Positions 40,179 to 62,995 of a stretch of 64,000 bases of DNA are shown here, piece after piece. The DNA comes from Candidatus Nanoarchaeia archaeon (GTDB lineage Archaea; Nanobdellota; Nanobdellia; WJKC01), in NCBI GenBank assembly GCA_041653515.1, contig JBAZFG010000002.1, positions 125,632 to 189,631 of the forward strand, in the 5' to 3' direction. Every line of letters starts with the position of its first letter. The stretch's first letter is position 1. The notes under the pieces are model-generated. The model had not been told where the DNA came from and ran no database searches. It worked only from the letters and a program-made list of their open reading frames with translations. Both the position numbers and the translations under genes were made by a program.

Positions 40179-40339
40179 GCCCCCGCAGTTTGGAATAAAC
40201 TTTTTTCAATAAGCAGGGGGATCAGGAAATGCCTAAAACTGAGGGGGATGTGCCCCCGCGGTTTGGAATAAACTTTTTTCAATAAGCAGGGGGATCAGGA
40301 AATGCCTAAAACTGAGGGGGATGTGCCCCCGCGGTTTGG
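40179..40339. repeat. tandem direct repeat, 73-bp unit x 2.2, GC-rich hairpin element
   Basis: Units 40179-40251 and 40252-40324 differ at one position (a/g); a third partial unit 40325-40339 ends at the aglB stop codon; the reverse complement matches the elements at 57371 and 62941. Confidence 0.85.
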
Positions 40340-42958
40340 TTACCAGGCAGGACTGCCGTTATCAACCCATGGCATCATTGCAGTATAATTAATGTGATAA
40401 ATATTAATGTTGGTTGGGTCGTATTGTGATATTAATCCTCTTATGTTTAGTGAGTTACTTGAGTAGACTAATTCAAAACCAGGTATTGTTTCGTTCAATA
40501 AGTATAAGTGAGTCATGAAACGATCATTTAAGTCTGATGGGATGTGAATTAAGCCTCCTTCAATGAATTCAATACAAGAGTCAATGCCGTTAGTCTCATT
40601 AAAGTAAGTGCAGCCATTACCATAATCACAAACGCAATTGTATGGGTGAAGCGTGTTACTGCCCGTAGCTAAGTTATAAACTACTGCTTGTGGCTGACCA
40701 AAAGATTGGTCTTCAGCCATTGGTATTAAAACGTTTACTATGTAACTCTCGCCTTTAGGGAATAATACACCATCAATGATTGTGTCAGCGCCAACATAAC
40801 CTGGTGAGGCTAAGTAATTGAAAACTAGTAGTGTGCTGAATTGTTCAGGATTATACAAGTTATTATCCACTTGCTGGCTGTAAGTGTAAGGTGCGTAATA
40901 ACCTGGCCTGCCACCAATATTAGCCATCTGAACATATTTTAGTATATCATCATCCATGACTAATAAATAATTAGGCCTATTGCCTGTTTCATTATTCTTG
41001 AAGTAATCAAGTGAGTCATAAACCTCTGTCATGTTAAAGCCGCTAAACATTTGGCCGCCAATAACTTCATCCCATACTACTTGGAAGTTACCCCCATCAA
41101 CTGTTGTTGCCCGCTCGCCCATGGTTTGAACCCAGTAACCATAATCCCACCAATGAGTGAATACAGCGTTAGTGTCAGTGTTATTCCTAACCCAACTCAT
41201 TGATTCGCCCCAATCATTAGTGAAGCTTGGAATCATTGTTGAAGCATCTTCAACAATAACATAGTAACTCCATATTACTAATAGTATTGCGACTGCGTAA
41301 ATAGCTGTTGAGTAAACTTTATCACTTGTTATTTTGCTGATTAAATTATTTATCCGCTCAATAGCGTAAGCAGCTAATAACACGAATATTGGGGTGCTAG
41401 CAAAGACAATTCTTATTGCGCCCCTAGTTGCAATAACACTTAAAGCAAACCATAAGATGATTATTAGTTTACTTGGCGTTAACTCACCCCACTTACTGCT
41501 CTTATGGAATTTAATGTAAAATAATATTACTGTTAAAGCCAATAATGGCAGTGTTAGTAAGTAAGTGTTCTCAAAGAATAAATTAATTGCTTCATAACCG
41601 TTTAAGTTAACGAATTTGCTAAACATGAAGAATAAGATGAACACAGTAAACATTATCACTACTGATGTGGCTTTCTTGCCAAACTTACCTAATACTTCTT
41701 GAACTAATAATGCTCCACCAATAACAAATAATGGCACAAACCATTGAAGCCTATGCCACCAGTCAACCCCGTTAGGGTCATAGAACCATGGGGCTTGGTT
41801 TTCAGTAACTGAGACGCAGAAAGCACAAGTGCCAAAAGGGTTTAGTATTGTATCAAGAGCGCCTTGTAGTTTGGCGCCAACATCAAATAATCCAGTTAAT
41901 TGCATTACTGGCAGACCAACCATTATTAATACTGCCATCATTATTACGAAATAAAAATTATCAGGCCACTTCTTGTTCTTGATTAAGTTACTGATGAATA
42001 AATCATAAACAATTTTTAATCCAAGCACTAACGCTGTGATAGTTGGTATTAAGAACATATCAATCATGATTAAACCAAAACCATTATAGCGCAGGGTCAT
42101 TGTAGCGTTCATTAATATTATTGGGATGAACCACGCAAAGTAAGTGATTACGTTTTTATTGCTTAATTTACCCATTAAAGCAAGGAATAGGAATGCTAAG
42201 CCAATGCTGAAGAATAAGAAGTTAGCCCCACCCCAAGTCAGGCTTGATAAGCCAGCTAATACGCCTGATATTAACCCGTAAATTAATGCTTGTTTAGTCT
42301 TATTTGCCCTAATTGATTTGACTAATGCATAAATCATGCTAAACCAAAAGACTGTTGCAAGCGCTTCCTTATCACTAAACCCTGCCATGGTCCTGAATAA
42401 ATATGATGGGATTAATGATAAAAACGCTGTGGCAATTAACGCTGTTTTCTTGTTGAATATTTCTTTAGTCATTAAGAAAAAGAATATCATGCTTATTACA
42501 AACGCAACAACTGGGTAAATCATTGAATAACTCATTAGTTCGCCGCCAAATAATGGGTGAAATATTGTGTATAATCCTGCAACAAAGTAAGACACTAATT
42601 GGTGCTCCTTGAAAGTGCTAAAACCTTCTGGAAAATAACGAAATGAATCCATTTCAGGCAGGGTGCCCTGCTCCACTAGTGTTTCAGTGTAGCGGTAAAA
42701 AACATACGGGTCAAGACCAAGCAATAAACCATTGTATAATGGTATGCTTAGCATCCTAACCCAAGCCCCAACTAATATAATACTAATTAATGCTGCGTAT
42801 AATATTATCTTCTTATTTTCTTTGAGGAATTTTACTGCTTCGCCAAAATTAAGTTCATCCTCATCAGTGGTTGCTGGTTTTTTCTCTTTCTTATCACTGC
42901 TAAACCAGCCTTTAATCTTTCGCCCTATCTCCCCGAAATCAATTTCTTCATCACTCAA
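40340..42958 (-). CDS. aglB: archaeal oligosaccharyltransferase AglB (STT3 family)
   Basis: 'FTHWWDYGYWVQTMG' canonical WWDYG motif; N-terminal 'GLDPYVFYRY' first-loop DxD-type motif; ~13 TM helices plus a C-terminal soluble domain. Confidence 0.85.
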   Translation of the reverse strand: MSDEEIDFGEIGRKIKGWFSSDKKEKKPATTDEDELNFGEAVKFLKENKKIILYAALISIILVGAWVRMLSIPLYNGLLLGLDPYVFYRYTETLVEQGTLPEMDSFRYFPEGFSTFKEHQLVSYFVAGLYTIFHPLFGGELMSYSMIYPVVAFVISMIFFFLMTKEIFNKKTALIATAFLSLIPSYLFRTMAGFSDKEALATVFWFSMIYALVKSIRANKTKQALIYGLISGVLAGLSSLTWGGANFLFFSIGLAFLFLALMGKLSNKNVITYFAWFIPIILMNATMTLRYNGFGLIMIDMFLIPTITALVLGLKIVYDLFISNLIKNKKWPDNFYFVIMMAVLIMVGLPVMQLTGLFDVGAKLQGALDTILNPFGTCAFCVSVTENQAPWFYDPNGVDWWHRLQWFVPLFVIGGALLVQEVLGKFGKKATSVVIMFTVFILFFMFSKFVNLNGYEAINLFFENTYLLTLPLLALTVILFYIKFHKSSKWGELTPSKLIIILWFALSVIATRGAIRIVFASTPIFVLLAAYAIERINNLISKITSDKVYSTAIYAVAILLVIWSYYVIVEDASTMIPSFTNDWGESMSWVRNNTDTNAVFTHWWDYGYWVQTMGERATTVDGGNFQVVWDEVIGGQMFSGFNMTEVYDSLDYFKNNETGNRPNYLLVMDDDILKYVQMANIGGRPGYYAPYTYSQQVDNNLYNPEQFSTLLVFNYLASPGYVGADTIIDGVLFPKGESYIVNVLIPMAEDQSFGQPQAVVYNLATGSNTLHPYNCVCDYGNGCTYFNETNGIDSCIEFIEGGLIHIPSDLNDRFMTHLYLLNETIPGFELVYSSNSLNIRGLISQYDPTNINIYHINYTAMMPWVDNGSPAW

Positions 42959-42965
42959 TTTAACA

Positions 42966-43784
42966 TCATACTCCTAATGAAATGTAAACCTCTAATAATC
43001 CCCCGATTATTAATACAATGCTTGCAAGCACTATTAAATCAATGGAATCAAGTAATACCTCTTTAAATTTATTACTCTTAGGGTCATGCCTTATTACTGC
43101 TGCACTAATAATGCCTCCTGCAATGCCTGCGAGGAAGTAAGCAATTAATTCTGGCAGACCATGAACTAAGTAACGACCAAACCCTAGTGGCACTGCCTGA
43201 AAATAAGAAGACCAATTACTAATATTGGTTTTAATTGCGTTGCCAATAGCGACGCCGAGCACGCTTGAGTTCCACGTGATAATAAATATTGCGCCCGCCC
43301 CGTATAATAAGCTAAATATTAAGCAGAAGAGTAATACTTTGAAGTTATTGGCTAATATTATTTTTAATAAATCTGTTTGCACTGCATTGCCTTGAATGGC
43401 TGATGAGTTAATGCTTCTGATAGTGTTTATTTGCTCTGAGAATATTTTTGCGTTAAGGCTGTCAGGCATTATGACATACCATGTGGTGAATGTTATTAAT
43501 AATCCCATTGACATGAAGAATATTACGCCGAGCACATCTTTATGATTGCCAATTAAGGGGTATTGTTTTTTGGTGAAATCCTCTGATTCCTCTCGTTTTA
43601 GCACGTTAACTAGTAATGGCACGCCAGCCATTGTTGTAAGAAAAACCATACTTAATGACGGGTCTGATGGGAATAACCACATGCTGACTACTAAGCCAAG
43701 GCTCGCGTATATCACGCCTAATATTGTCATTTTCCAAGGCTTGGCTCTAACTTCTTTACTGCTTAATATTGACTCAAAAACCAT
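42966..43784 (-). CDS. integral membrane protein (SpoIIM/DUF95-like)
   Basis: 272 aa, about six hydrophobic helices; no catalytic motif recognised. Confidence 0.35.
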   Translation of the reverse strand: MVFESILSSKEVRAKPWKMTILGVIYASLGLVVSMWLFPSDPSLSMVFLTTMAGVPLLVNVLKREESEDFTKKQYPLIGNHKDVLGVIFFMSMGLLITFTTWYVIMPDSLNAKIFSEQINTIRSINSSAIQGNAVQTDLLKIILANNFKVLLFCLIFSLLYGAGAIFIITWNSSVLGVAIGNAIKTNISNWSSYFQAVPLGFGRYLVHGLPELIAYFLAGIAGGIISAAVIRHDPKSNKFKEVLLDSIDLIVLASIVLIIGGLLEVYISLGV

Positions 43785-44838
43785 TAATCACCTCTAATTT
43801 TCGGCTCCTGCCTTGGAATCCTTCGCCAGTATCAGTTGCTTTGATTAGTCCTTGTTTTCTTAATCGGTTAATGTAGCGCCTAAAACTCCTAATGCTTAAT
43901 TCGCCATGTATCTCGCGGTAATTCTTGTAAGCATCGCCGCTAATAATATTAGGGTTCTCTTTTATGATGTTAATTATTTTTTCTTCATGGTCGCTTAATT
44001 CCTGAGGTAAGTTAATAGTTATTGTCTTAATTGCTTCTTCAACGTGCTTGACTGTTATTTTCCTGCTAGCATCCCGCTCAGCCCTGCGTCCAGCTTCTAA
44101 TAATAAGTTGATTGCTTTCCTAACATCTGTGCCTGAATTAATACTTACTTCATGGACTACTCCTTCGCTTACAACACTTGGGTGGAACGCTTGTTTGGCC
44201 CTGCGTTCAATAATGTTTTTCATCTCGCGCGTAGTGTATGGCTTGAACTCCATGTTATTAAGGTTTAATCGCGACATTAATCGTGGTTCAATATAATTCT
44301 TGTACTTAGGGTTGTTAGTGACCATTAAGATGCATACCCGTTCTAAGTTTAGTAATGAGTATATTATGTCAAGGTCTTTTATTTTATCCACTTCATCAAG
44401 GCAGACTACTGCTCCTTTTTCCCTTAGTTTTCTCATCGCGTTATTAAGTATTTCTTCGGTCGGCACACCTTTAGGGGGATAGAGCATGCCTAATCGTCGC
44501 GCTATCTCTAAAGCTATTGTGTGAGTGGTCTGGCTTTCCCAGCAATTAATGAATACTGGTACAATATCGCTGGTCTCTTTTAATTCGTTAAAAATATATT
44601 TGATGCTCGCTGTCTTGCCAAGCCCAGGCATGCCGTGGATGAATACATTACTCCCTAAGCGATTTTGTAATAATGGTTTGATGAAACTAGCTATTTCTTT
44701 AATCTCATTGTCCCGTTCAGGCATTTCTTCTGGTTGGAATTTATAATCGAGAATAGTTTCATCCTTGAACAAAGTCTCGTTGTCCATCAGGATATCTTTG
44801 AATAAGCCCCCCATAATAGTAAGGGACACGCTAATCAT
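43774..44838 (-). CDS. orc1: Orc1/Cdc6 replication initiator (AAA+)
   Basis: Walker A 'GMPGLGKTAS'; 'VCLDEVD' Walker B; C-terminal winged-helix region. Confidence 0.85.
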   Translation of the reverse strand: MISVSLTIMGGLFKDILMDNETLFKDETILDYKFQPEEMPERDNEIKEIASFIKPLLQNRLGSNVFIHGMPGLGKTASIKYIFNELKETSDIVPVFINCWESQTTHTIALEIARRLGMLYPPKGVPTEEILNNAMRKLREKGAVVCLDEVDKIKDLDIIYSLLNLERVCILMVTNNPKYKNYIEPRLMSRLNLNNMEFKPYTTREMKNIIERRAKQAFHPSVVSEGVVHEVSINSGTDVRKAINLLLEAGRRAERDASRKITVKHVEEAIKTITINLPQELSDHEEKIINIIKENPNIISGDAYKNYREIHGELSIRSFRRYINRLRKQGLIKATDTGEGFQGRSRKLEVINGF

Positions 44839-44892
44839 TATTAAAGGTTCCGATAATAAGTCTTAAATAATTGTTAAGCACAATAATTAATC

Positions 44893-45384
44893 ATGGCAAA
44901 GGAGTTTTCAGATAATTTAGGTGATAAAGCTAATGAGGATTATCAGCAAACACTTGAGATTATTTTTAGCTCAATTCTTGACCCATTGTTTGAGTTACAA
45001 AACGATGTTTTTGAGTTAAAGGGTTATGTGACTAATGTGCTGCCTGATTATATTAAAAAGTTAGTTACAACTGGTGTTGAAGAATTATACGTTAAAATAA
45101 TTGCATTCTTTAATGAGCGTGACCGAAAAATAAATGATTATTTTGACCAACAAAGAGGTCAGATTAATCAGCCAACTAATATTCCTGTTAATAGTTATGT
45201 TGTAGGTAACACTGCTATTGGTTTTAAGACGCTTGATGATTTAACCCCGCCACCGCCGCCTAAGAAGCTTGATCAATCATTTGAGAGTTCTATGTGTGAA
45301 GTAAAAAATAAACAGGATACTGTTCGTAAAAATATTATTGATGAATTAAAAGAATTGTTTACTAAGCGCGGCCCAATTGATTAA
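44893..45384 (+). CDS. hypothetical protein
   Basis: 163-aa ORF, acidic, 'PPPPPKK' linker; AT-rich. Confidence 0.4.
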   Translation: MAKEFSDNLGDKANEDYQQTLEIIFSSILDPLFELQNDVFELKGYVTNVLPDYIKKLVTTGVEELYVKIIAFFNERDRKINDYFDQQRGQINQPTNIPVNSYVVGNTAIGFKTLDDLTPPPPPKKLDQSFESSMCEVKNKQDTVRKNIIDELKELFTKRGPID

Positions 45385-45848
45385 TTTCTTAGTATATTAA
45401 CTGCTTTGATTGCTTTAATGAGCATTTTCTTGTTGACTGGTTTATTGCTTTTTAATGCGTTTTGTTGTTGTTTCCTATGCAATTCATTTATTGAGTAGCT
45501 TAGTATTACTTCAACACTTTTATCATAGTAACCGCTGGTTTTTAAGTAATAAGTGCCGTTTCCGAAATAAGTTATTCTAATATTATACTCATCGGTTTTA
45601 CTAAGCCCTACTGCTGTGAATGAATTCTTTGCTGGTGTCTTAATTGATTGATTAATCATCTGTTCTAACTGGCTGATTGATAACTCTTTTTGGTTAAGTG
45701 TTTTAAGGCTTTTTTCTTTAGCACTGATTAATTCAAGTGTTAACCCGCTTAGCCAGCCAATTGCAACGTATGTTTTTCCTGTTATTGCTTTGCTCATTTC
45801 TTGAGCAACGAATAACTCATCATCAAATTTTAGTGATGTGTACATCAT
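45381..45848 (-). CDS. hypothetical protein
   Basis: 155-aa ORF with no recognisable motif. Confidence 0.4.
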   Translation of the reverse strand: MMYTSLKFDDELFVAQEMSKAITGKTYVAIGWLSGLTLELISAKEKSLKTLNQKELSISQLEQMINQSIKTPAKNSFTAVGLSKTDEYNIRITYFGNGTYYLKTSGYYDKSVEVILSYSINELHRKQQQNALKSNKPVNKKMLIKAIKAVNILRN

Positions 45849-45877
45849 TAATTGTTTCTTTTTATTATCTTATATAC

Positions 45878-46393
45878 TTAATTGGTTGATTCAAATAAGT
45901 TGTTGAGTGTTTTGTAATCAATTATTAGGCTTTTTTTTAGCTGAAATTTTGTTGTGTTAATTAATTGTTCTTGGTTTAAGTCTTTGATTTTGTTTACTTT
46001 GATGATTACATCATCCTCGTTCTTGATTATTACTGAGTCAATAGTATTGTATTGGGTAAACGTATTAGTTCTTAACTCAAATTGTTTGTTCTTCTTAACT
46101 ATTTTAAGGAAACTAAAATAACCTTCATCAAATAAAGGTTCTTTCATTGAATCATTAATTATGTTGTTAAACTCATTTTTGTTAATAAATTTATATGGGT
46201 TAATTATTATTAATCTAACCTCATCTAATCTTAACATACCTATTAATTGCTCTCTTCTTCTTCCCATTAATGCTGCTAAATTGATTGGTCCATGGTTGAA
46301 ATCATACCAGTAGTTAGTAATTAATTTATGGTCATTGCTCTCTCTAATCTTATGATTAACATCTGGTTTTGGTTTGTATTGGCCATTATTCAT
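45878..46393 (-). CDS. hypothetical protein
   Basis: 171-aa ORF with no recognisable motif. Confidence 0.4.
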   Translation of the reverse strand: MNNGQYKPKPDVNHKIRESNDHKLITNYWYDFNHGPINLAALMGRRREQLIGMLRLDEVRLIIINPYKFINKNEFNNIINDSMKEPLFDEGYFSFLKIVKKNKQFELRTNTFTQYNTIDSVIIKNEDDVIIKVNKIKDLNQEQLINTTKFQLKKSLIIDYKTLNNLFESTN

Positions 46394-46444
46394 ATTCTTT
46401 ATTACCCATAATCTTTTTTATAACAATTACTGTCCTACAATCCC

Positions 46445-47440
46445 ATGGGTGTTAATATTCGCGATTTAGTTACGCCAGTTAGGACAGACCTTAAGTCTTT
46501 ATCTGGCTGTAAGATTGGGGTTGACGCTTTTAACTGGTTATACCAGTTTATCTCAACTATCCGCCAGCCTGACGGCACGCCGTTAATGGATTCTAAAGGC
46601 AGGGTGACTAGTCATTTAACTGGCTTATTTTATCGGGTGTTTAAGTTGCTTGAGTATGGGATTAAGCCTTGTTTTGTTTTTGACGGCAAAGCGCCTGATT
46701 TTAAGTTAGTGACTGCTGAGCGTGTTAAGCGTAAGGTTGAGGCTAAGCGTAAGTATGCGCAAGCGTTGGCTGAGGAGGATTTTGTTCGCGCCCGCAGTCT
46801 GGCAGGTCAGACGAGCCGATTAACTGGTGAAATGGTATCTCAGGCTAAGGAGTTAATCATTGCTATGGGCTTGCCTGTTATTCAGGCGCCAAGCGAGGGC
46901 GAGGCCCAGATTGCTTATATGACTAGTCAGGGTGATTTTTGGGCTAGTGCTAGTCAGGATTATGATACTTTGTTGTTTGGTAGTCCGCGGTTGGTTAAGA
47001 ATATTAATATTGTTGGCAAGAAGCGCTTGCCTCGTGGTGGTTTTGTTGAGGTTGTGCCTGAAGTGATTGAATTAAAATCATTACTTGAATCACTTGGCTT
47101 GTCCCGAGAGCAATTAATTCAGCTTGGCGTATTAGTTGGTACTGATTTTAATCCTGGCGGGGTTAAGGGTGTTGGGCCTAAGACTGCGCTTAAATTAGTC
47201 CGCGCTCATACTAATCCTTTTACGCAAGTTGATTGGGTATCCAGTATTAAACCTGAGTTTATTATTGATTTTTTCCTTCATCCACCAGTGATTAAGGATT
47301 ACAAACTGGTTTGGTCTGCGCCTGATTTTGATAAAGTTAAGTCAATCTTAACTTCATTTGAGTTTAGTGAGACAAGGATTGAGAATGTTTTTAAGAAATT
47401 CCGTGAGTCAGGTCAATCACAATTAAATAAGTGGTTTTAG
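46445..47440 (+). CDS. fen1: flap endonuclease FEN-1
   Basis: 'MGVNIRDLV...CKIGVDAFNWLYQF...KPCFVFDGKAP' N-domain; 'GTDFNPGGVKGVGPKTALKL' H3TH motif. Confidence 0.85.
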   Translation: MGVNIRDLVTPVRTDLKSLSGCKIGVDAFNWLYQFISTIRQPDGTPLMDSKGRVTSHLTGLFYRVFKLLEYGIKPCFVFDGKAPDFKLVTAERVKRKVEAKRKYAQALAEEDFVRARSLAGQTSRLTGEMVSQAKELIIAMGLPVIQAPSEGEAQIAYMTSQGDFWASASQDYDTLLFGSPRLVKNINIVGKKRLPRGGFVEVVPEVIELKSLLESLGLSREQLIQLGVLVGTDFNPGGVKGVGPKTALKLVRAHTNPFTQVDWVSSIKPEFIIDFFLHPPVIKDYKLVWSAPDFDKVKSILTSFEFSETRIENVFKKFRESGQSQLNKWF

Positions 47441-48112
47441 TTATTTTCTTTTTTTCTTGAAAAAACTCTTAGCAGGTCCTTCCTTGATCGCCCAGCCAAA
47501 ACCAATGCCAATAGCAAGGCTAATACCAAGACTAACCCCTAATACAATATACTTAAAAGTGTCTTCGAGTAAGCTTGTGTTAGTTAGGCCGAATTTTGGT
47601 AAAGCCATTACCACTGCAAAGAATAATATAATGCCATAAACAATTTCTGCTATTGTCTCGTTGAATGGTATTGCGTTGCTCTTGATTTTCTTGCGCACGA
47701 AGTCAGCAAATACCATTGCAATAATTATTATTCCTGCCCCAACGCTTACTTCTGGTATTGCTCTTATTATGCCGTCAAATAATTCTGCCAAGAAAGTTAG
47801 GCTGGTCCTGACAGCTGCTTCTTTGAGGAATATAATGATAATGTAATACTTAACTATTAAGCTGACCGCATTAGTTACTGATATATTATAGAGTGATTCT
47901 TTTAGTTTCATTTTTTTTAGCCATTCATCAATTTGTGAGGCAGTCATTAATTTCTTGATTATTACTTCACTTATTTTTGCCACAACCCAACCGAGTAGTA
48001 ATATTAGTAATGCAGTGATTATTTTTGGCAAAGCTAGTATTAATGCTGTGGCTGATTCTTGTAATGCTTGAGCTGGTAATTCAACAATATTTAGTAAAGT
48101 ATCATTAACCAT
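47441..48112 (-). CDS. integral membrane protein
   Basis: Multi-TM; the likely start is the internal 'MVNDTLLNIV' rather than the upstream extension that overlaps the next gene. Confidence 0.4.
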   Translation of the reverse strand: MVNDTLLNIVELPAQALQESATALILALPKIITALLILLLGWVVAKISEVIIKKLMTASQIDEWLKKMKLKESLYNISVTNAVSLIVKYYIIIIFLKEAAVRTSLTFLAELFDGIIRAIPEVSVGAGIIIIAMVFADFVRKKIKSNAIPFNETIAEIVYGIILFFAVVMALPKFGLTNTSLLEDTFKYIVLGVSLGISLAIGIGFGWAIKEGPAKSFFKKKRK

Positions 48113-48170
48113 TATTCTTGTCTTAATGACCGTTAATTTTAAAACGTTTACTAATACTATTATTATTTGT

Positions 48171-48443
48171 ATGGAGCTTGATTCACAGTTAGAAAAAGAG
48201 TACGCGCGCACTGTTTTCGCGTTTAAAGAGTTATCAGTGACTGACTCACAGCAAGCGCGTGAATTATATGAGCTGGTTAAATCTTATTATGATGACGCGC
48301 TTCACTTTTACAATAAGGGCTTGAAATTAGAATCTTTTGAGTTATTCGCTTATGTTTGGGGTTTGCTTGACGCTGGCGCCAGGCTTGGTTTGTTTGACCC
48401 TGGTGCTGCGCGCCAGCACTATAAGATAGAGCAACATATTTAA
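48171..48443 (+). CDS. conserved hypothetical protein
   Basis: ORF from 'MELDSQLEKEY...'. Confidence 0.3.
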   Translation: MELDSQLEKEYARTVFAFKELSVTDSQQARELYELVKSYYDDALHFYNKGLKLESFELFAYVWGLLDAGARLGLFDPGAARQHYKIEQHI

Positions 48444-48469
48444 ACCATTAATCTTTCTTTTTTCTTTTA

Positions 48470-48634
48470 ATGGTAAAGCATTGTGTTTCTTGTGGTAAGG
48501 ATGTTAGCACTATCAATAATAGTGTTGTTTTTGATTGCCCTAAGTGCGGTAAGGGTAAGATTGTTCGTTGTGGTAAGTGTCGCAGGTTAGGGATTAGTTA
48601 CTCGTGTGTTGAATGCGGGTTTAAGGGGTTGTGA
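48470..48634 (+). CDS. Zn-ribbon protein (COG2888-like) upstream of aEF-1beta
   Basis: 54 aa, 'CVSCG..18..CPKCG..7..CGKCRR..9..CVECG' (four CxxC pairs); the stop overlaps the start of the next gene. Confidence 0.45.
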   Translation: MVKHCVSCGKDVSTINNSVVFDCPKCGKGKIVRCGKCRRLGISYSCVECGFKGL

Positions 48635-48910
48635 TTGTTTATGCCAAATAAAGTTATTATGACTGTTAGAGTAATGCCTGAGGGGCTTGAAGTTAATCTT
48701 GATGAATTAAAACAAGCTATTACTAATGCTTTAAAGGGCGTGGCTGAACCTGGTATTACAATTAAGAAGGAGCCGATTGCTTTTGGTCTTAATGCGCTTG
48801 ATGTTACGTTCGTGACTGATGAGGTTACTGGTTCTAGTATTATTGATGATAAATTAGCTGTTTTGTCAGGGGTTCAAACTGCTAGTTTATCCAGTGTTAG
48901 TTTGTTTTAG
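48635..48910 (+). CDS. translation elongation factor aEF-1 beta
   Basis: 'VIMTVRVMPEGLEVNLDELK...EPIAFGLNALDVTFV' matches the archaeal EF-1beta pattern. Confidence 0.75.
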   Translation: MFMPNKVIMTVRVMPEGLEVNLDELKQAITNALKGVAEPGITIKKEPIAFGLNALDVTFVTDEVTGSSIIDDKLAVLSGVQTASLSSVSLF

Positions 48911-49274: not shown

Positions 49275-49294
49275 AATCCTTATATGCGCATCCT

Positions 49295-55597: not shown

Positions 55598-55621
55598 ATA
55601 ATTGATTTAGCATTTTTTTGT

Positions 55622-56797
55622 TTAAGTAATTAGTCTTTCCCTGATTTTAGTGACTTCGTTTCTTAGTTTTTCTTCATTAATGCCCAATAAGTTCTTGCCA
55701 TCACGAACAATTTCTTTTCCTTTTAAGTAAACGCTTTTGATTGCGTTCTTATTCATTATTTTAGCTACAAATTCACTAACTGTCTTAAATGGTTTTAATT
55801 GGCTCATATCAATTAGTGAGAAACTAGCTTCGCTTTCTGGCCCGAATGGCTCATGAGTCATAGTGTATGCTTGATTAATTGTTACGCCAGTGAGCTCGTA
55901 GGACTCCCATGCTTCATTTAATATTGATGATGATGGGTTCCAAGCGTAACTGTCAGTGCCTAGTAACATTTTAACATTATTATTAAGCATTACTTTGTTT
56001 GGCGGCGCGTTATCACTAATCGCTTTATTGCTCGTCGGGCAGTGCATTACTTGAACGTTATTTTCAGCTAACATTAATATGTCCTTGCTGTCAGCGTAAG
56101 TGCAATGAGCTAACCTTAAGTCATGCTCAAGCATTCCAAGACTATTCAAGTAATCAATTGTTCTCATGCCAGTTAATTTCTTTATATGCTTAACATCCTC
56201 AAGTGTCTCGCATGCGTGCATGTGAATTGGCAGGTCATTTTCCTGTGCAAACAATAATCCTTCTTTTATTAATTGTGGTGTGCATTCATACTCGTTAGCT
56301 AAGCCTAACATTATTTTATTGCCGTACTTCTTTTTTAATTCAAGCGTTTGGTTGAATTGTTTGCTAATACTGCTTTTCTCTTTATGAGCATCCTTGACTG
56401 CAAGGCAAGCAGTGTAACCTAACTTGCATTTATTAATTGCTTTAATTACTGGCTCAGGGTTCATGTCCATGGTGTCAACATGAGTCACGCCTTCCTTGAT
56501 TGATTCAAGGCAGGCTAACAGTGATGCTTTGTAAACATCAATTGTTTTGCGCCTGTCATGAACCTTAAAACCAATATTATCAAAATACTCATATTTTTTC
56601 AAGCCAAGCGCAGCCCCACTCACTGCTCGACTACCAAGGTGAACGTGAGCGTTAGTTAATCCTGGCAGTAAGAATAAGCCAGTGCAATCAACGCCTTTAC
56701 TCAGGTTGTTCTTAATGTAATGAACTGATTGGTCAAAGAATATGTCTGTCTTGATTAACCGACCACCTTTCAGAATAGTGATATTATTGAGTATCAT
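55622..56797 (-). CDS. amidohydrolase (MTA/SAH-deaminase or cytosine/guanine-deaminase-like)
   Basis: 'LPGLTNAHVHL' HxH metal site; 'HMHACE' and 'GTDSYAWN' later motifs. Confidence 0.65.
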   Translation of the reverse strand: MILNNITILKGGRLIKTDIFFDQSVHYIKNNLSKGVDCTGLFLLPGLTNAHVHLGSRAVSGAALGLKKYEYFDNIGFKVHDRRKTIDVYKASLLACLESIKEGVTHVDTMDMNPEPVIKAINKCKLGYTACLAVKDAHKEKSSISKQFNQTLELKKKYGNKIMLGLANEYECTPQLIKEGLLFAQENDLPIHMHACETLEDVKHIKKLTGMRTIDYLNSLGMLEHDLRLAHCTYADSKDILMLAENNVQVMHCPTSNKAISDNAPPNKVMLNNNVKMLLGTDSYAWNPSSSILNEAWESYELTGVTINQAYTMTHEPFGPESEASFSLIDMSQLKPFKTVSEFVAKIMNKNAIKSVYLKGKEIVRDGKNLLGINEEKLRNEVTKIRERLIT

Positions 56798-56823
56798 TGA
56801 TTAATCTTTAAGTATTTTAATGC

Positions 56824-57300
56824 TTAAATAATATATTTCTCAAACAAGTTGCCTGGTCCTTTACTTGTTTTATAAAGCGTGTGTTTTTTTAGCCAATTAA
56901 TTAAGTTCATAGTTTTCTTATTATTAGTTAAGTGCAAGCCCCATGTTGATGGGTCACAAATGTATTCTTCTTCTTGATAAGTAAATTTATTCCAAACGTG
57001 ACTTAATGGTTCATTAAAGAACTCATTTGTAAGTAAGTAATTTCTGCCTTCAATGATTTTATTGTAAGCTTTACCCATTATCATAATTGTTTTAAATTGT
57101 TTATTCTCTGATAAGACGTTGTTTAGGAATTGTGCGAAGTGATTGCATAAACCTCCTTTATTTATGAATTCATTAGTGGTGGTTTCCCAATTATTTGGCG
57201 CGCAATAAGGGATATTAGCAATCGTTTCTTCAAGAAATAATTCTAATTCCTTTATGTTATTTATTTTTTTATGATAAGTGTTGTCAATTATATCATTCAT
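56824..57300 (-). CDS. transglutaminase-like cysteine peptidase domain protein
   Basis: Putative Cys-His-Asp triad in order: 'GGLCNHFAQF', 'SHVWNKF', 'ICDPSTW'. Confidence 0.4.
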   Translation of the reverse strand: MNDIIDNTYHKKINNIKELELFLEETIANIPYCAPNNWETTTNEFINKGGLCNHFAQFLNNVLSENKQFKTIMIMGKAYNKIIEGRNYLLTNEFFNEPLSHVWNKFTYQEEEYICDPSTWGLHLTNNKKTMNLINWLKKHTLYKTSKGPGNLFEKYII

Positions 57301-57336
57301 GTTAAATTAACTTTTTTTTAGTATTTTTAAAGTTTT

Positions 57337-57488
57337 TTAGAAATCACTGAGTTTTTTCTGCTTAGTCCCTAACCGCAGGGAGGGGTGACCCCTCCCTTCA
57401 GTTTTAGGGTAATCCTGATTCCCACCCCCCTACGATTGTAATTATGCCAGAGACATGTTAGAAATCACTGAGTTTTTTCTGCTTAGTC
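57337..57488. repeat. GC-rich hairpin element (57371-57430) bracketed by a perfect 31-bp direct repeat (57337-57367 / 57458-57488)
   Basis: 'ttagaaatcactgagttttttctgcttagtc' occurs twice; the second copy is the last 10 codons plus stop of nucS; between them lies 'aaccgcagggaggggtgacccctcccttcagttttagggtaatcctgattcccacc'. Confidence 0.8.
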
Positions 57489-58210
57489 TTATCAACTATG
57501 TTCCTGTTTGGTGGTTCTACTTGGCAGAACTTAAAGCTCCAGTCATGGAGCATTTGTTCAGCGTTCTTAGTGATGCCTGGCGCTGCGATGTAACCAATGA
57601 CTTTGTCAATTCCTTTAGCTGCCTTGATTCTCTCAACGTAGCGCCTTAGTTGTTGGACCGCGCTAAGCCCGGCAGTCACTCGCTTACACTCAATAATTAT
57701 TAATGCTCCTTCACCATCATGGCCCATCACGTCAATAAAACCATATTTTGTTTGTTCTTCAAGGCTGACTGGCCTAAAGTCAATGCTAATAATATGTGGG
57801 TGCTCATAAATCATGCGCGCCATGTCAGCTTCACTGCCCATAATCATTACTTCTTCATCATCGCTTAGTTGGCCTGAGATTAGTAAGTCAATGCTGGTTA
57901 TTTTAATGACCATTTGTTCTCTTGGGTTGATTGATTCAGCAGTGATGAATAATGAGTCGCCAGCTTCAACCCTGATGCTCGCGCCTTCTTTTATCCAGTT
58001 AACTGGGTTCCTGCCTGTTGGTTTGTGAACTAATAGTGTTTTGTCTGTTTTGATGGTGACTGCCCTGCCGCCCCGCTCGAGCTTTGAGTAAGCCCTGCCT
58101 TCATACTTAACCTCGCACTCGCAGTAAAGTGTGATTAACTCGTTTCGCTTGAGTGCTTGGTCTAATACGTTCTTGGTTGTATCAAAATCAGGTTTAACAT
58201 AATTGCTCAT
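57458..58210 (-). CDS. nucS: endonuclease NucS/EndoMS
   Basis: C-terminal RecB-like nuclease motif 'GFIDVMGHDGEGALIIIECKR'; N-terminal dimerisation/ssDNA-binding-like region. Confidence 0.7.
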   Translation of the reverse strand: MSNYVKPDFDTTKNVLDQALKRNELITLYCECEVKYEGRAYSKLERGGRAVTIKTDKTLLVHKPTGRNPVNWIKEGASIRVEAGDSLFITAESINPREQMVIKITSIDLLISGQLSDDEEVMIMGSEADMARMIYEHPHIISIDFRPVSLEEQTKYGFIDVMGHDGEGALIIIECKRVTAGLSAVQQLRRYVERIKAAKGIDKVIGYIAAPGITKNAEQMLHDWSFKFCQVEPPNRNIVDKTKQKKLSDF

Positions 58211-58263
58211 CTAATTCTTTATCTCGATACACATATAAATTGATTTTGTTATCTTTATTATTC

Positions 58264-58647
58264 ATGGAAGTTATTGTTGACATTTTTGATCCTAGCAAAC
58301 AGGAGTTCATTATTGGTGACCGTAGATTACCAAGCTACTTTGTTGGTAATGTAATTGGTCATTTAAAGGGTTATAAATTGTTAGGGGATGATAGTGTCCA
58401 GCAGATGCTTCCGTTACTTAATGAAATTGAATTAAATATGTATAAAACGCTTGATGATAAAACTACTCAATTAAGATTCTTGGCTTCTAAGCTGGTTGAG
58501 AAATTAACTTTTTTTGGCTCATATGACGAGCGAGTTATTATCTTAGAGGATTTCATTAACTCTGAATGTGATATGTATGTTAAGAAATTAAGGATTGATG
58601 ACCAGACTAAGAAAGAGTTAAAGCGCTTAATGGCTCTTACTCGATAA
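58264..58647 (+). CDS. hypothetical protein
   Basis: ORF taken from 'MEVIVDIF'; no motif recognised. Confidence 0.3.
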   Translation: MEVIVDIFDPSKQEFIIGDRRLPSYFVGNVIGHLKGYKLLGDDSVQQMLPLLNEIELNMYKTLDDKTTQLRFLASKLVEKLTFFGSYDERVIILEDFINSECDMYVKKLRIDDQTKKELKRLMALTR

Positions 58648-61456
58648 GTATTCCTGGTTTGCATGGCATTGCTTTCGGGTTATCTGCTTTGACTACATCA
58701 ACTTCTGTGTTATACTCTTGTTCAAGGAATTTGATTGCTTCGTTTAGTGATTGGTACTCACCATTCCTGTCTGGCGCGCTTAATGGCACGCGGCTTGGGT
58801 TCCTGATTAATGACTGGATGATGCCTGTCGCGTCCTTGGCGTGAGCTTTGACTGAAGCGTTCTTTAAGGCATTAGTAATTAATTCTTTTAAGTCATGCTT
58901 GTTCTTTGACTTAACCACTGATTTGTATAAGTCATACTTCCATTGGTCAGCGATGAATAATGTTATCTTTTTTGGTTTTGTTTTTATTATGCTTAATAAA
59001 CCATTAATGTCCTTGATTGTGTTCATTATTATTGATTCGTTCTGCTCAATTGATTGGTTAATCATTGATTCATTGATTTTTGGGAATCGGGCTAGTGAGA
59101 CAAACCCTTTGTTAATTTTGCTCCAAGCCTCCTCGCAGATGTGGGGTATTAATGGCTCGAGTGCTATCAGCCAGTCAGCTAGGAAAGTCCTGATTACACT
59201 ATTAAATTGTTGCGCGCTCACTCTTTTCTTGTAGTAGTTAAGCTCGTTCATGAACTCAAAGAAAATGTTAATTGCGTAAGGCCTAATCATGATATTACAT
59301 CCCTGCTCGTAAGCTTCTTTTATTCTTGAGTAAAAACGGCTGGTAATCCACTTGTCGATGCTGGTTAATTTCTTGGCTGGCAGCGCTTTACTTGCTGTCA
59401 GCACTAGATTAGCAAAATTAGTTATTTTTGTTTTGACGCTGGCAACCTCGTTCTCGCGCCAGTCAACTACTGAGTCAATGTCGCTTGAGCTTAATAAGAA
59501 CATTCTTAGTAAGTCAGCGCTGTACTTTTCAGCTACTTCAGCTAATGGTATAACGTTGCCTTTGCTCTTACTCATCTTAACCCCTTCGCGGATGACCATT
59601 TCGTTGAAACTTATTTCTTTTGGCCAGTACTTTTTGGGGAATATCTTGGTGTGGTGGAATAAGAAGAATGTTAGGTGGTTGCTGATGTGTGCTGGCGCAG
59701 TGTGGCGGTGGTCAAGTGGGTACCAATAAGTGAAATCTTCACGCATCTCACGCGCCCATTTAACTTTAAACTCACCTTTACCTAGGAATACATAATCAAA
59801 TAATTCAGGGGTTAATTGTTCTGGTTTTATTTTCTCGCGGTGAATAATGTTAATGATTGTGTAAAATGCCATGTAAATCGTTGAGTCGCTTAAGCTTTCA
59901 ATAACCCACTTGTCATCATAAGGCAGTTTTGTGCCTAAGCCTCTTTTGCGCGCGCAAGGTCTTTTCTCAAGCCAGTCAACCGTGTCAATGAATGACTTGC
60001 GGTACTTGTCAGGTATTATTGTCATATCATTAATTAATCTTCTAGTCTTGTCTTTCCATTCTTTGCTTGTGTAATCAAGGAACCATTGATCGTTAAGCAC
60101 TGCCACTATTACCTTGCCAGTGCAACGGCACTCAGCTTTGCGGCTGGTCTCGTAGAATGTGAAAGCGTCGCCTTGGCTTATTAGTTTGTTCCTGACACGG
60201 TCTTTAATTTCATTTATCTTGAGTCCTTTGAATTCAGCGCACTTTTCATTAAGCACTCCTTTGTAGAATTCATCTTTGTAAACCCTCTTGGTTGCTTGTT
60301 CTATTAGTTCCTTGTTGCGTTGGTTTTTAACGCCTAATTTGTTAATCATTTCAACTGCAGGTTCATTGCTGTAACCCTCAATGTTAATGATTGTTATTGG
60401 CTTAATTGACTTGATTTCCTTACTGTCAAGCCCGTAATCAGTTATGCCCTTGCTATCATTTTGCAAGTCTCTTAATGCTGCGTAATCAAACGGTGCGTGG
60501 GCTGGCACTGAGTAAACAATGCCTGTGGCCACGTCTGGGTCAACGAACTGACCTGGAAGTATTGGTACTTCAGTTCCTAATGGGGTGGTGACGTGTTTGC
60601 CTATTAGCTCTGTGCCAGCTAGTTCCCTTGTTTTCTTTAATCCTGTTTGCTGGTATTTTAATTTGTTGAATGCTTCAACGCTTATGATTAAGTTATTATT
60701 AGTCTCAACGTACAATGATTCAGGGTTAACCCATAAGTTAGTAATGCCATAAATTGTTTCAGGCCTTAGTGTACCTGCTACTAATTGTTTGCTGCCTAAA
60801 TCGAATTTGATTGCAGTGAACTCATTAATGCTTACTTTATCAGCGTCACCATCCTTAATATCATCCTCGCCAACAGCGTTGTCACAGTTAACACAGAAAT
60901 TAATTGGGTAACTACCCTGGGTTAATGCTTTGCCTTGTTTTAGTTTTTTAAACTGCCATTCAATAAATTTATTGTACTCTTTGTCGCCAGTGGTGAATTG
61001 TCTTGTCCAATCAACGCTGACCCCAATACTCTCAAAGTCTTGTCTGATAACGCTGGCGAAGTGCTTGGCAACGTTCATTGGTTCCTTGAATGACTCAATT
61101 ATCTTCTTGACTTTACTTTCATCTTTTTCTCTTAAGCGGACGTAATTAGTGAATAACTCGATGTAATTCTTATCACCTTTCCTTATGCGGTCGCTGATAG
61201 CTAATATTGGCGTGCCTGAGATGTGATAAGCCATGGGCCATAAGACATTATAACCTTGCTTTCGCTTGAAGCGCGCAATGAAGTCGCCGATACTGTAAGT
61301 CCTGCCGTGGCCAATATGGTAAGGGCCACTGGTATATGGGTATGGTACTGTGAAGAAATACTTCTTGCCTGTTTTTTTGGGCTCAAAGATTTTATCCTTA
61401 ACCCATTGCTTCTGCCACTTACGCTCTATTTTAGATAAATCCATCTTGTTAATCAC
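58637..61456 (-). CDS. leuS: leucyl-tRNA synthetase (archaeal type)
   Basis: 'PYPYTSGPYHIGHGRTY' HIGH; 'KMSKSKGNV' KMSKS; 939 aa with a CP1 editing-domain insertion. Confidence 0.9.
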   Translation of the reverse strand: MINKMDLSKIERKWQKQWVKDKIFEPKKTGKKYFFTVPYPYTSGPYHIGHGRTYSIGDFIARFKRKQGYNVLWPMAYHISGTPILAISDRIRKGDKNYIELFTNYVRLREKDESKVKKIIESFKEPMNVAKHFASVIRQDFESIGVSVDWTRQFTTGDKEYNKFIEWQFKKLKQGKALTQGSYPINFCVNCDNAVGEDDIKDGDADKVSINEFTAIKFDLGSKQLVAGTLRPETIYGITNLWVNPESLYVETNNNLIISVEAFNKLKYQQTGLKKTRELAGTELIGKHVTTPLGTEVPILPGQFVDPDVATGIVYSVPAHAPFDYAALRDLQNDSKGITDYGLDSKEIKSIKPITIINIEGYSNEPAVEMINKLGVKNQRNKELIEQATKRVYKDEFYKGVLNEKCAEFKGLKINEIKDRVRNKLISQGDAFTFYETSRKAECRCTGKVIVAVLNDQWFLDYTSKEWKDKTRRLINDMTIIPDKYRKSFIDTVDWLEKRPCARKRGLGTKLPYDDKWVIESLSDSTIYMAFYTIINIIHREKIKPEQLTPELFDYVFLGKGEFKVKWAREMREDFTYWYPLDHRHTAPAHISNHLTFFLFHHTKIFPKKYWPKEISFNEMVIREGVKMSKSKGNVIPLAEVAEKYSADLLRMFLLSSSDIDSVVDWRENEVASVKTKITNFANLVLTASKALPAKKLTSIDKWITSRFYSRIKEAYEQGCNIMIRPYAINIFFEFMNELNYYKKRVSAQQFNSVIRTFLADWLIALEPLIPHICEEAWSKINKGFVSLARFPKINESMINQSIEQNESIIMNTIKDINGLLSIIKTKPKKITLFIADQWKYDLYKSVVKSKNKHDLKELITNALKNASVKAHAKDATGIIQSLIRNPSRVPLSAPDRNGEYQSLNEAIKFLEQEYNTEVDVVKADNPKAMPCKPGILIE

Positions 61457-61545
61457 TTATTAACTCCTCTTTTTTTAACGTTGCGTAATTATTATCGCAT
61501 TATTTTTTTAAGATTTTTCCCAAGAAGACTTTAAATAATCCTAAT

Positions 61546-62748
61546 GTGTGTTCATTATTCATGCGCAATAATCTTAATAATTTCTTTGTTGAGCGCGTGA
61601 AGCACTTTAAGCACATGGCTTCATTATCCAATACTTTTTTCTTTTACTTGTTCGCCTGGGGTCTAGTCACGCCAATATTTAATATTCATATTAATGAAGT
61701 GACTAATTCACTTTTCTTGTCCGGCATTATCTTTTCTGTGTTTGGTTTTGCTAGAATATTTTTTGACCCGTCAATCGGTTTGTTATGCGACCGCGTTAAC
61801 CCTAAGAGATTATTGCAGGGTAGTCTATTGTCTTATACATTAATATTTTTCTTATACACGATTGCTAATAATTTTTATTTATTATTAATCGTGCGAGTAT
61901 TGCACGCAATTGCTTGTGCCATGCTCTGGATTTCTGGTTGGACTTTAGTTAGATTAAAGAGTAAAGGTAATTCTGCTCAGGAAGAGATTAGTGTTTGGTA
62001 CTCAGTTCAGTACATTGCTTATGTTATTGCTCCTTTAATTGGTGGCTCGTTGATAACAATGTTTTCGTGGCAACCTGTTTATTACTTAGCGTCAATAACT
62101 GCTTTTATTGCTTTTGTTTACGCTTCAATTAATGTTAAGAGTGTTCATACAAGTAATAATAGTAAGAAGCGGTTTAGGGATTTATGGCACCAGTTCTTCA
62201 TAAATAAATCATCATCAATTAGGCTAGTATTATTAACATTCCTTGAAATATTAATCGTGATTGGTTTCTATGAGTTCATGCCATTATTATTAGATCAGGC
62301 TGGGCTTAATATTGAGGAGATTAGCGTTGTGTTTGCTTTGGCTTATACTACCCCATTTATTTTATTCCCAGTAATTATTGGAGTTATTAGTGATAAGTAT
62401 GGTCGCAAAATACCAACTGCTATTGGTTTGATAATCATTAGCTTTGGGTTATTATTGTTCTGCAACGCCAGTACTTTTACTCAATTCCTGTTTTATACTT
62501 TCATTATTGTTACTGGTGATGCGTTTGTTAACTTAAGTTTTAACGCAGAGCTTAATGATATGACACCAAAAAACAGTGCTGGTGGTTTTACTGGTATTTT
62601 TGAGATGATTAAGGATTTGGCTGTGGCCATCGGCCCGTTGTTAGTTGGTGTTTTAAGTGCTGTAACTAATATTTCATTTGCTTTTATAATAATGAGTGTG
62701 ATGTCATTAGGCACTATATTAGTGCTTAAAGGGTTTAAGAATTTCTAA
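61546..62748 (+). CDS. MFS transporter
   Basis: About 12 TM helices; 'DRVNPKR' loop 2-3 motif region. Confidence 0.6.
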   Translation: MCSLFMRNNLNNFFVERVKHFKHMASLSNTFFFYLFAWGLVTPIFNIHINEVTNSLFLSGIIFSVFGFARIFFDPSIGLLCDRVNPKRLLQGSLLSYTLIFFLYTIANNFYLLLIVRVLHAIACAMLWISGWTLVRLKSKGNSAQEEISVWYSVQYIAYVIAPLIGGSLITMFSWQPVYYLASITAFIAFVYASINVKSVHTSNNSKKRFRDLWHQFFINKSSSIRLVLLTFLEILIVIGFYEFMPLLLDQAGLNIEEISVVFALAYTTPFILFPVIIGVISDKYGRKIPTAIGLIIISFGLLLFCNASTFTQFLFYTFIIVTGDAFVNLSFNAELNDMTPKNSAGGFTGIFEMIKDLAVAIGPLLVGVLSAVTNISFAFIIMSVMSLGTILVLKGFKNF

Positions 62749-62791
62749 AAGCAAGCCTTAAAAAGTAATTAATTCTTTTCTAAATATTAGT

Positions 62792-62935
62792 GGGCCCGTA
62801 GCGCAGTTTGGATAGCGCGACAGGCTTCTACACTCGACGCTTCGCGTCTCGTTCCGTCCTTCGGACGGCCGCTCGCTTAAAACGAGCGGGGGTGAGGATA
62901 CCTGTAGGTCGTGGGTTCAAATCCCTCCGGGCTCG
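62792..62935 (+). tRNA. tRNA-Arg(TCT) with 69-nt intron at canonical position 37/38
   Basis: Acceptor GGGCCCG/CGGGCTC, D-stem GCGC/GCGC, anticodon stem ACAGG/CCTGT separated by 'CTTCTA'+intron+'A'; T-loop TTCAAAT; one T-stem mismatch; the intron carries two hairpins (ccgtcc-ttc-ggacgg; gctcg-cttaaaa-cgagc). Confidence 0.7.
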
Positions 62936-62940
62936 CACGA

Positions 62941-62995
62941 AAACCGCAGGGAGGGGAGACCCCTCCCTTCAGTTCATCTCCTGATTCCCACCTCC
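62941..62995 (+). repeat. GC-rich hairpin element, copy immediately 3' of tRNA-Arg
   Basis: 'aaccgcagggaggggagacccctcccttcagtt...cctgattcccacc' is nearly identical to 57371-57430; 9-bp stem agggagggg/cccctccct. Confidence 0.8.

Follow-up and report, generated by a model that had tools for sequence, protein, structure and literature searches.

The DNA analysed here, referred to below as the window, is a stretch of 64,000 nucleotides of Candidatus Nanoarchaeia archaeon (GenBank assembly GCA_041653515.1, contig JBAZFG010000002.1, positions 125,632 to 189,631), forming part of contig C2 of a 1.115 Mb genome with 36% GC and 97% completeness, whose 16S rRNA is archaeal and whose source sample is a groundwater metagenome. 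At the stop codon of an open reading frame (ORF) at 40340-41737, beside the NucS gene at 57458-58210 and directly after a tRNA-Arg(TCT) gene, the window carries four copies of a G/C-rich hairpin repeat of about 60-75 nt which encodes no protein. The repeat is structured, insertion-derived and non-autonomous, and the four hairpins are probably copies of a small non-coding, interspersed archaeal element that spreads by insertion, as opposed to a resident terminator or an RNA regulating one particular gene.

The copies were identified using a covariance model, built solely from metagenome copies unrelated to the window and run with cmsearch on the window and the genome. Exactly four matches were obtained in the window (41.7-62 bits, E 1.5e-7 to 1.7e-12), and 12 solid copies were found at nine loci across the host genome, with a GC content of 57-70% as compared to 36% for the genome. 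The 9-mer of the stem has four matches in the window against 0.08 expected. Metagenome and viral contigs were scanned for exact matches to a 27-position pattern, which is present on at least 120 metagenome contigs and gave zero matches on the viral contigs; the figures for metagenome copies given below come from among the matches listed. A loose regular expression allowing errors returned 628 chance matches, and early loose pattern scans likewise returned chance matches only, hence these were set aside. The features of the window are as follows, where P1 denotes the central hairpin and P0 the outer helix that encloses it.

40178..40193, minus strand: truncated third unit of a head-to-tail array, the first 16 nt of the element (CCAAACTGCGGGGGCA), read from the sequence
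40212..40269, minus strand: element copy B, second unit of the array (cmsearch 62 bits)
40285..40342, minus strand: element copy A (cmsearch 61.7 bits, E 2e-12), which begins at or overlaps the stop codon of ORF 40340-41737
57337..57367: left 31-nt target duplication, in which the final 31 nt of the NucS gene, stop codon included, stand as an orphan
57365..57428, plus strand: the 57.4k element copy, antisense to both adjoining genes (cmsearch 61.1 bits)
57367-57373 paired with 57401-57409, plus strand: P0 of the 57.4k copy, also in the minimum free energy (MFE) fold
57377-57385 paired with 57389-57397, plus strand: P1 of the 57.4k copy, also in the MFE fold
57414-57419, plus strand: CCTGAT of the 57.4k copy
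57420-57430, plus strand: third strand of the 57.4k copy (TCCCACCCCCC)
57429..57457, plus strand: variable 3' tail belonging to the 57.4k copy and sharing homology with that of the C1:99.5k copy
57458..57488: right 31-nt target duplication, which serves the minus-strand NucS gene (57458-58210) as its functional 3' end and stop codon
62792..62935, plus strand: tRNA-Arg(TCT) with a 69-nt intron (Rfam tRNA 49.7 bits; ARAGORN with introns), whose segment from the T-loop to the 3' end is the duplicated target
62939..62994, plus strand: the 62.9k element copy directly 3' of the tRNA, a linker variant with a 5-nt deletion (cmsearch 41.7 bits, E 1.5e-7; alignment)
63054..63083: degenerate second copy of the tRNA 3' part 62915-62944, 77% identical, an old target duplication found by repeat search

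Positions within the element were anchored on the invariant motifs CCGC, TCAG and CCTGAT, and the anatomy is given on the CCGC strand. P1 is a G/C-rich, richly co-varying hairpin of 5-10 bp, with variants such as GGGGG/CCCCC, GGGAGGG/CCCTCCC and GGGAAAC/GTTTCCC. The bases just 5' of CCGC pair with those just 3' of TCA to form P0, which consists of a nearly invariant AAC/GTT and, past a bulge, 2-4 co-varying pairs; anchored counts for one of these (u-4/link5) are C-G 69, G-C 19, U-A 13 and A-U 3. Between the two helices lies an invariant 3x3 internal loop, CGC opposite UCA. On the 3' side of P1 there is a linker of ~12 nt with the invariant CCUGAU at its end, followed by a pyrimidine run that mirrors the 3' strand of P1 and is termed the third strand; the entire connector between P1 and this strand spans 22-25 nt, includes the invariant TCAG and CCTGAT and forms part of the outer helix. 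Beyond it extends a subfamily-specific tail of 1 to >100 nt. The element ends read CCGAACCGC... and ...GATTCCCCC, and no terminal inverted repeats are seen.

The original prediction, made from the letters of the window, had described a stem that varies while its pairing is kept, compensatory change within it and a conserved box downstream, all of which are borne out. Both a 9-bp version (AGGGAGGGG/CCCCTCCCT, at 57377-57385/57389-57397 and 62948-62956/62960-62968) and a 5-bp GGGGG/CCCCC version occur in the window, and the TCAGTT...CCTGAT(Y)CCC box is found in all four copies. In a model-fitted alignment of 110 distinct copies, 97.0% of the cells are paired compared to 83.8% in shuffles, and double changes number 163 against 43, a count equalled by none of 500 shuffles; changes on both sides are observed in 8 of the 12 pairs, and slid controls drop to 36-76%. 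The MFE fold of the 57.4k copy also yields P0 and P1, and MFE z-scores (-0.6 to -2.4) were not used as evidence because shuffled G/C runs fold too. A 4-bp UCAG/CUGA helix was considered and rejected, since both of its sides are invariant and give no covariation signal, and it competes with the co-varying P0. The bulge-helix-bulge intron motif, hammerhead and other ribozyme cores, the C/D box and riboswitches were likewise discarded, as their defining motifs are lacking; Rfam 15 gave no family match on the element at the gathering score, nor at E<=1 on five element-bearing loci.

The C-run that follows CCTGAT is the parallel complement of the P1 purine strand, or in other words a mirror of the P1 3' strand. 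In a register test on 100 asymmetric copies the parallel register was preferred in 83 and the antiparallel in 1, with 16 ties, which rejects an antiparallel Watson-Crick pairing of tail and stem of the switch or attenuator type. The parallel match is 0.96 compared to 0.785 in shuffles (shuffle maximum 0.82), and the run lengths of third strand and P1 are correlated (r = 0.83). At the first triple (position 0) A-T-T is found in 90 copies and G-C-C in 32 with a single exception, and positions 4 and 5 switch jointly from G-C-C to A-T-T. The element thus has the three homopurine/homopyrimidine blocks, a hairpin and a mirroring third, by which potential intrastrand triplex repeats are defined. Mirror symmetry together with three-way covariation is the signature of an intrastrand triple helix, and we regard this covariation as comparative proof that the third strand is under selection.

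Judging from these patterns, a single strand can fold as a hairpin with the third strand in its major groove. The predicted triples would be C+·G-C and U·A-U on the CCGC strand, a Y·R-Y arrangement, or G·G-C, A·A-T and T·A-T on the complementary G-rich strand, which as DNA would provide a pH-independent R·R-Y purine motif. G/C-rich intrastrand purine-motif triplex repeats fold as single-stranded DNA in vitro at neutral pH (PMC4666352, PMC8044849) and the purine motif does not form in RNA (PMC4666352), and for this reason we lean towards a fold at the level of DNA rather than RNA.

Evidence for insertion comes from the flanks. At eight of the nine host-genome loci a host sequence X of 24-39 nt is repeated on either side of the element (X-E-X), the exception being the tandem array. 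The repeats are listed below.

57337-57367 / 57458-57488: 31 nt, perfect
C1:201k: 36 nt
C4:22k: 28-30 nt, three copies
C2:54k: ~35 nt, three copies
C4:64k: 26 nt, three copies
C3:38k: 39 nt
C1:99k: ~35 nt, diverged
62915-62944 / 63054-63083: tRNA 3' part, 77% identity

The perfect direct repeat around the 57.4k copy has a spacing of 121, and the degenerate one at the tRNA reaches a local alignment score of 14 as against a shuffle maximum of 11. Amongst metagenome copies, flanking direct repeats (score >=13, 13-63 nt) were detected in 38 of 109, compared to 1 of 105 in an upstream control window. On the left, the repeat stops at the foot of P0, 4-7 nt short of CCGC; on the right, its second copy opens 1-187 nt past the core, meaning that the 5' end of the element is precise and its 3' tail variable; the tails belong to the element, since they are homologous within subfamilies. 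No target consensus is apparent among the insertion sites, and microhomology at the 5' junction, read from the gap distribution, is not above chance. As the repeat differs at each copy, it must have been made at insertion and not carried along as an attP site. In two relatives the element is missing from the orthologous NucS locus, which closes with a short AT-rich spacer.

Duplication affects gene termini, namely gene starts, gene stops and tRNA 3' halves. Five independent duplications begin at the ATG of a same-strand gene, and there the element tail carries GAGG/GGAGG 8-10 nt before its end, while the orphan start and the element together make a mini-ORF that ends as ATGA or TAATG on the real start. 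Such mini-ORFs of ~35-40 codons, with the stop in an ATGA/TAATG that overlaps the start codon, were noted at L002 (C1:201.4k), L006 (C4:22.5k), L004 (C2:54.9k) and L272, and this layout would allow termination-reinitiation coupling; at L272 a TATA-like box lies ~27 nt upstream of the orphan ATG. About a dozen further duplications begin between -28 and +14 nt from the stop codon of an antisense gene. The spread of these offsets is in keeping with insertion and later selection, in a compact genome, for keeping one gene copy intact, and the need for a ribosome-binding site at the leaderless gene of L272 fits insertion plus selection as well.

A preference for tRNA genes is evident, with 24 of 124 copies located within 300 nt of a tRNA. 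Ten matches, corresponding to eight loci when the L271 array is counted once and the window copy added, follow a same-strand tRNA, with the element beginning 1-4 nt past its 3' end; the 62.9k copy, in sense orientation 3-4 nt past the 3' end of tRNA-Arg(TCT), is of this kind. In nine matches the tRNA lies downstream on the opposite strand; at least seven of them have the T-loop interrupted by the element and the segment from the T-loop to the 3' end duplicated. The element falls within the predicted tRNA span in five cases, and three show other arrangements. The enrichment at tRNA genes, roughly 50- to 1000-fold, is too strong for chance and therefore indicates a target preference. Many tRNAs beside metagenome copies carry long introns (tRNA length 113-156 nt). 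The intron-bearing tRNA at 62792-62935 was itself missed by ARAGORN in its default mode and recovered by Rfam and by ARAGORN with introns.

The copies at 40178-40342 (minus strand) constitute a head-to-tail array of 2.2 units of 73 nt, in which 40178-40250 and 40251-40323 are 99% identical and the stem is GGGGG/CCCCC. Arrays in the window, at L271 and at L278 have an element 5' end as their exact starting point and are cut off within a unit at the tail side. At L278 type A units alternate with a related type B in the pattern A-B-A-B, the last being 39 nt long. The type B unit, seen at L278:8350-8570 and L271:6240-6545, shares the outer sequence and G/C hairpin of type A, with the internal-loop motifs swapped (TCATA...TCGCG) and CCTTCA in place of CCTGAT; its tail looks like a direct, not a mirror, copy of the stem 3' strand. 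At L271 a third, G-rich unit (..GTAGAGGGGTGGCAT..) then follows.

The metagenome contigs that bear the element range from 27 to 65% in GC. Eight neighbouring proteins were scanned, of which seven match a family and one matches none; the matches include the PolD large subunit, thermosome and archaeal signal peptidase, besides the less diagnostic valine- and threonine-tRNA ligases. Where sampled, through these eight proteins and the tRNA introns and not contig by contig, the hosts are archaeal, an assignment that extends to the level of archaea. No protein family recurs beside the element, the commonest neighbour family being present at 6 of 120 loci among the loci listed. Within the class of the host, 2 of 401 genomes are carriers, with 12 copies in the host genome and one in genome G014. 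This points to a patchy distribution and a recent burst in the host genome, where the cores at C4:22.5k (two copies) and C4:64.5k are identical.

The 5' edge of the element is the foot of P0 and its shortest 3' edge is the end of the third strand. Because the edges of the element coincide with those of the fold, the folded single strand would be the unit that is recognised by a trans-acting activity or that survives as a transposition intermediate. Insertion duplicates 13-63 bp of target, and the survivors in compact archaeal genomes would be those in which the duplication reaches a gene terminus and leaves one gene copy intact; subfamilies with GAGG/GGAGG tails persist precisely at start codons and provide the ribosome-binding site there. 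The mechanism we prefer is transposition of the folded single strand at the DNA level by a trans-acting enzyme making wide, variably staggered cuts, a tentative choice that could well go either way. Host genes are genuinely affected, for instance by the donation of ribosome-binding sites, by mini-ORF coupling and by changed C-termini; these effects look like survival filters and not the raison d'être of the element.

The original prediction had instead proposed a terminator or stabiliser hairpin of the 3' untranslated region, or a small non-coding RNA. Its observation of sense orientation holds for ORF 40340-41737, where the copies lie 3' of the stop, and for tRNA-Arg(TCT) 62792-62935; for the former, which it had named aglB, position and orientation stand and the label is putative, there being no Pfam hit and a sub-threshold match (E ~1e-6) to the middle and C-terminal part of PglB/STT3 profiles. 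In the host genome as a whole, however, five loci are sense and four antisense to flanking genes, three copies lie directly upstream of start codons within duplicated gene 5' ends, no consistent run of at least five T follows the hairpin among the copies and Rfam has no match; with orientation so mixed, an outcome that the prediction had itself listed as speaking against it, the terminator reading is unsupported. The mobile-element alternative, which had been set aside, is now backed by the flanking duplications, a feature that had gone unnoticed along with the outer helix and the co-varying third strand. A wider version, where a cis-acting RNA module (terminator, 3' or 5' stabiliser, translational coupler) has been recruited repeatedly and the repeats are a by-product, appears very improbable. 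It would account for a structure conserved with covariation, for sense copies right after a stop codon or tRNA, for the five cases of GAGG/GGAGG 8-10 nt before a start codon with overlapping ATGA/TAATG, and for an orientation that is non-random, the upstream ORF of metagenome copies being opposite-strand in 53 cases and same-strand in 26. The orientation is nevertheless mixed and more often antisense on the CCGC strand, consistent oligo-T tracts, gene-family association and Rfam matches are wanting as described, target duplications and tandem arrays are signatures of insertion, and only 2 of the 401 related genomes carry the element.

Two other routes of insertion have to be weighed against DNA-level transposition. 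In retroposition of the kind known for short interspersed nuclear elements (SINEs), tRNA-linked copies would be co-transcribed, RNase Z would free the element RNA and a reverse transcriptase would copy it at a nicked target, a route that would yield a precise 5' end, a variable 3' tail, long duplications of variable length and arrays through template jumping. The precise 5' junction and variable tail, duplications of 13-63 nt, arrays that run from an element 5' end to a tail-side break within a unit (window 40178-40342; L278), the eight loci with the element 1-4 nt past a sense tRNA and the chance level of 5'-junction microhomology all agree with it. We nonetheless consider it unlikely: RVT_1 has no match in the 97%-complete genome (a partner may have been lost or left unbinned) and no reverse transcriptase is among recurrent neighbours, the duplicated tRNA segments are without CCA and were therefore not copied from mature tRNA, and at neutral pH an RNA run of 5-7 C+·G-C triples is disfavoured, while RNA does not adopt the purine motif (PMC4666352). 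Less probable again is an enzyme-free template switch, in which replication halts at the hairpin-triplex and a nascent strand switches template from another place, copies the element as far as the structural block and returns behind its point of departure, making the flanking duplication. The coincidence of element and fold edges, the varying duplication length, the lack of transposase families in the host genome and the link of bacterial triplex repeats to local genomic instability (PMC4666352) are in its favour. The roughly 50- to 1000-fold enrichment at tRNA genes argues against it, as do unpaired motifs that are invariant across very different hosts, suggesting sequence-specific recognition, and the patchy spread over hosts of 27-65% GC, which needs horizontal transfer. 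Template switching normally leaves microhomology, however none beyond chance is present at the 5' junction.

Several observations weigh against the reading of the hairpins as an element that spreads by insertion. RVT_1, Cas1, Y1_Tnp, DDE_Tnp_1 and TnpB have no match in the 97%-complete host genome, which has one tyrosine recombinase only, and an RNA function that depends on sequence would also explain why the unpaired CCGC, TCAG and CCTGAT are so strongly conserved in hosts ranging from 27 to 65% GC. No duplication is detectable in about 65% of metagenome copies. No empty-site polymorphism was seen among exact-protein look-ups of flanking genes, where the NucS protein was found in the source sample only and the GTPase locus L272 carries the element in all five places (five samples), i.e., it is fixed; two further proteins had no record. 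Contigs of four sequencing runs on window 44001-64000 contain no joint that skips the 57.4k copy; unitigs of these runs break at the 31-nt duplication, and there is no bridging contig from independent studies. The pair covariation counts rest on a model-fitted alignment, of which the anchored counts (u-4/link5 and the third strand) are independent. Mismatch counts, G-T 11 against A-C 13, do not discriminate the folding strand, and triplex formation we infer from covariation alone.

It is conceivable, if doubtful, that the element travels as a self-folded, geneless hairpin-triplex nucleic acid of ~60 nt and represents a type of archaeal mobile element not described before, with an insertion mechanism new to archaea. 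If true, one option would be target-primed reverse transcription of a tRNA-trailer RNA, making this the first SINE-like retroposon of prokaryotes, and the other a structure-specific integrase with cuts up to 60 bp apart and a preference for tRNA T-loops.

Bacteria and one family of methanogens are already known to carry interspersed triplex-forming repeats. Intrastrand triplex repeats of the BoxC/PIT/TMECO kind occur in Enterobacteria, cyanobacteria and other bacteria (Holder et al. 2015, PMC4666352; Hoyne and Maher as cited therein), and like the archaeal element they are short, G/C-rich, highly conserved interspersed repeats with three runs, a hairpin and a third that mirrors one arm, in either orientation, with no linked gene and with patchy copy number between close relatives. 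TMECO DNA forms a purine-motif triplex in vitro, has the layout Y-loop-R-3 nt-R in 37 nt with a second loop of 3 nt, and is reported to be always intergenic, with no link to transposons, phages or plasmids found (PMC4666352). The archaeal copies, however, have a P0 that encloses the hairpin, target duplications of 13-63 nt, tRNA targeting, head-to-tail arrays and archaeal hosts, and they depart from both the short-loop rule (1-6 nt) and the TMECO consensus CCCTCNCCC-N3-6-GGGNGAGGG-N3-GGGNGAGGG; their second connector of 22-25 nt, which bears TCAG and CCTGAT, makes them a variant and not a TMECO member. In Methanomicrobiaceae, recurrent G-quadruplex-prone repeats with a 3' C-rich tract form a hairpin and antiparallel triplex, as demonstrated by circular dichroism and S1 probing of DNA oligonucleotides (PMC8044849). 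These too are archaeal, interspersed and near gene starts or ends, read R(third strand)-R-loop-Y on the G-rich strand, and have a third-strand T opposite an A-T pair that is the complement of the A at 57424 and 62990 in the window copies; on the other hand, a loop of 3-5 nt joins their third strand, and no outer helix, CCGC/TCAG/CCTGAT motifs or target duplications are described. A family relationship with them is possible. Taken together, the connector, P0, motifs, duplications, tRNA targeting and arrays place the element in neither the BoxC/TMECO nor the Methanomicrobiaceae family.

Comparison with known mobile elements is similarly partial. The element resembles SINEs and MITEs (miniature transposable elements with inverted repeats) in its small size, its multiple copies without coding capacity, the target-site duplications at its flanks and its need for functions in trans, and with SINEs it further shares one precise and one variable end and a varying duplication length. 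No reverse transcriptase partner was found and no A-rich or LINE-like (long interspersed nuclear element) tail was seen, which makes an identity as a SINE no more than possible. An identity as a MITE was rejected: target-site duplications are present, though 13-63 nt long and variable, and terminal inverted repeats, a parent insertion sequence (IS), transposase families in the genome and a recurrent neighbour gene are lacking. Ordinary prokaryotic transposases make duplications far shorter than these. Long repeats of variable length are produced by IS1634-type elements (PMC2266710), but no DDE_Tnp_1 gene was found in the host genome. As in tRNA-targeting integrative elements, direct repeats span the T-loop to the tRNA 3' end and an intact tRNA copy is kept, however the element is only 60-110 nt long, has no integrase and shows a different repeat at each copy. 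An IS200/IS605-derived PATE or REP/RAYT origin was dismissed in view of the missing Y1_Tnp and TnpB, the absent target consensus and the presence of duplications, and a CRISPR array or Cas1-type integration because tandem units are identical throughout and the genome has no Cas1. AAC...GTT with its unpaired spacer bears a formal resemblance to the RYYYAAC / GTTRRRY core sites of integron attC, but the copies are dispersed at gene ends with duplications and no cassette structure is seen.

To what was known of triplex repeats the archaeal family adds three-way covariation, insertion footprints, a wide archaeal host range and a recent burst in a 1.1-Mb genome without a recognisable transposase, and how such repeats move becomes directly testable. 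Annotators may also take caution, since gene starts, gene stops and tRNA 3' halves that appear twice in archaeal metagenome-assembled genomes can be footprints of the element.

Some further observations concern individual loci. At C4:64543-64640 (G000; about 1244-1340 of L007), the second and third 26-nt target copies 3' of the element have between them a degenerate stretch resembling the element (TCCAAACTTTTCCGC...), which may be a copy that has decayed or lost its interior. At L318 (500-700 and 1290-1409), two paralogous minus-strand genes with hydrophobic N-termini, candidate signal peptides, each start 12 nt from an identical element, after which degenerate element-like units follow; as identical elements stand beside both paralogues, gene and element were duplicated together. 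In the window, the NucS/EndoMS mismatch endonuclease encoded at 57458-58210 (minus strand) has a C-terminus 5-6 residues shorter than its relatives (6 compared to 11-12 after the shared QKL/KKL motif). ORF 40340-41737 (minus strand, 465 aa) is followed by a family-4 glycosyltransferase gene at 39122-40141 (minus strand) and may be a short or split form, for which the aglB label is plausible, if unverified. Finally, pieces of landfill metagenome contigs from another study are identical to window 45753-45949, 57483-57721, 62671-62917 and 63020-63184, and given this lack of any difference the same or a near-identical organism seems to be present outside the groundwater source sample.

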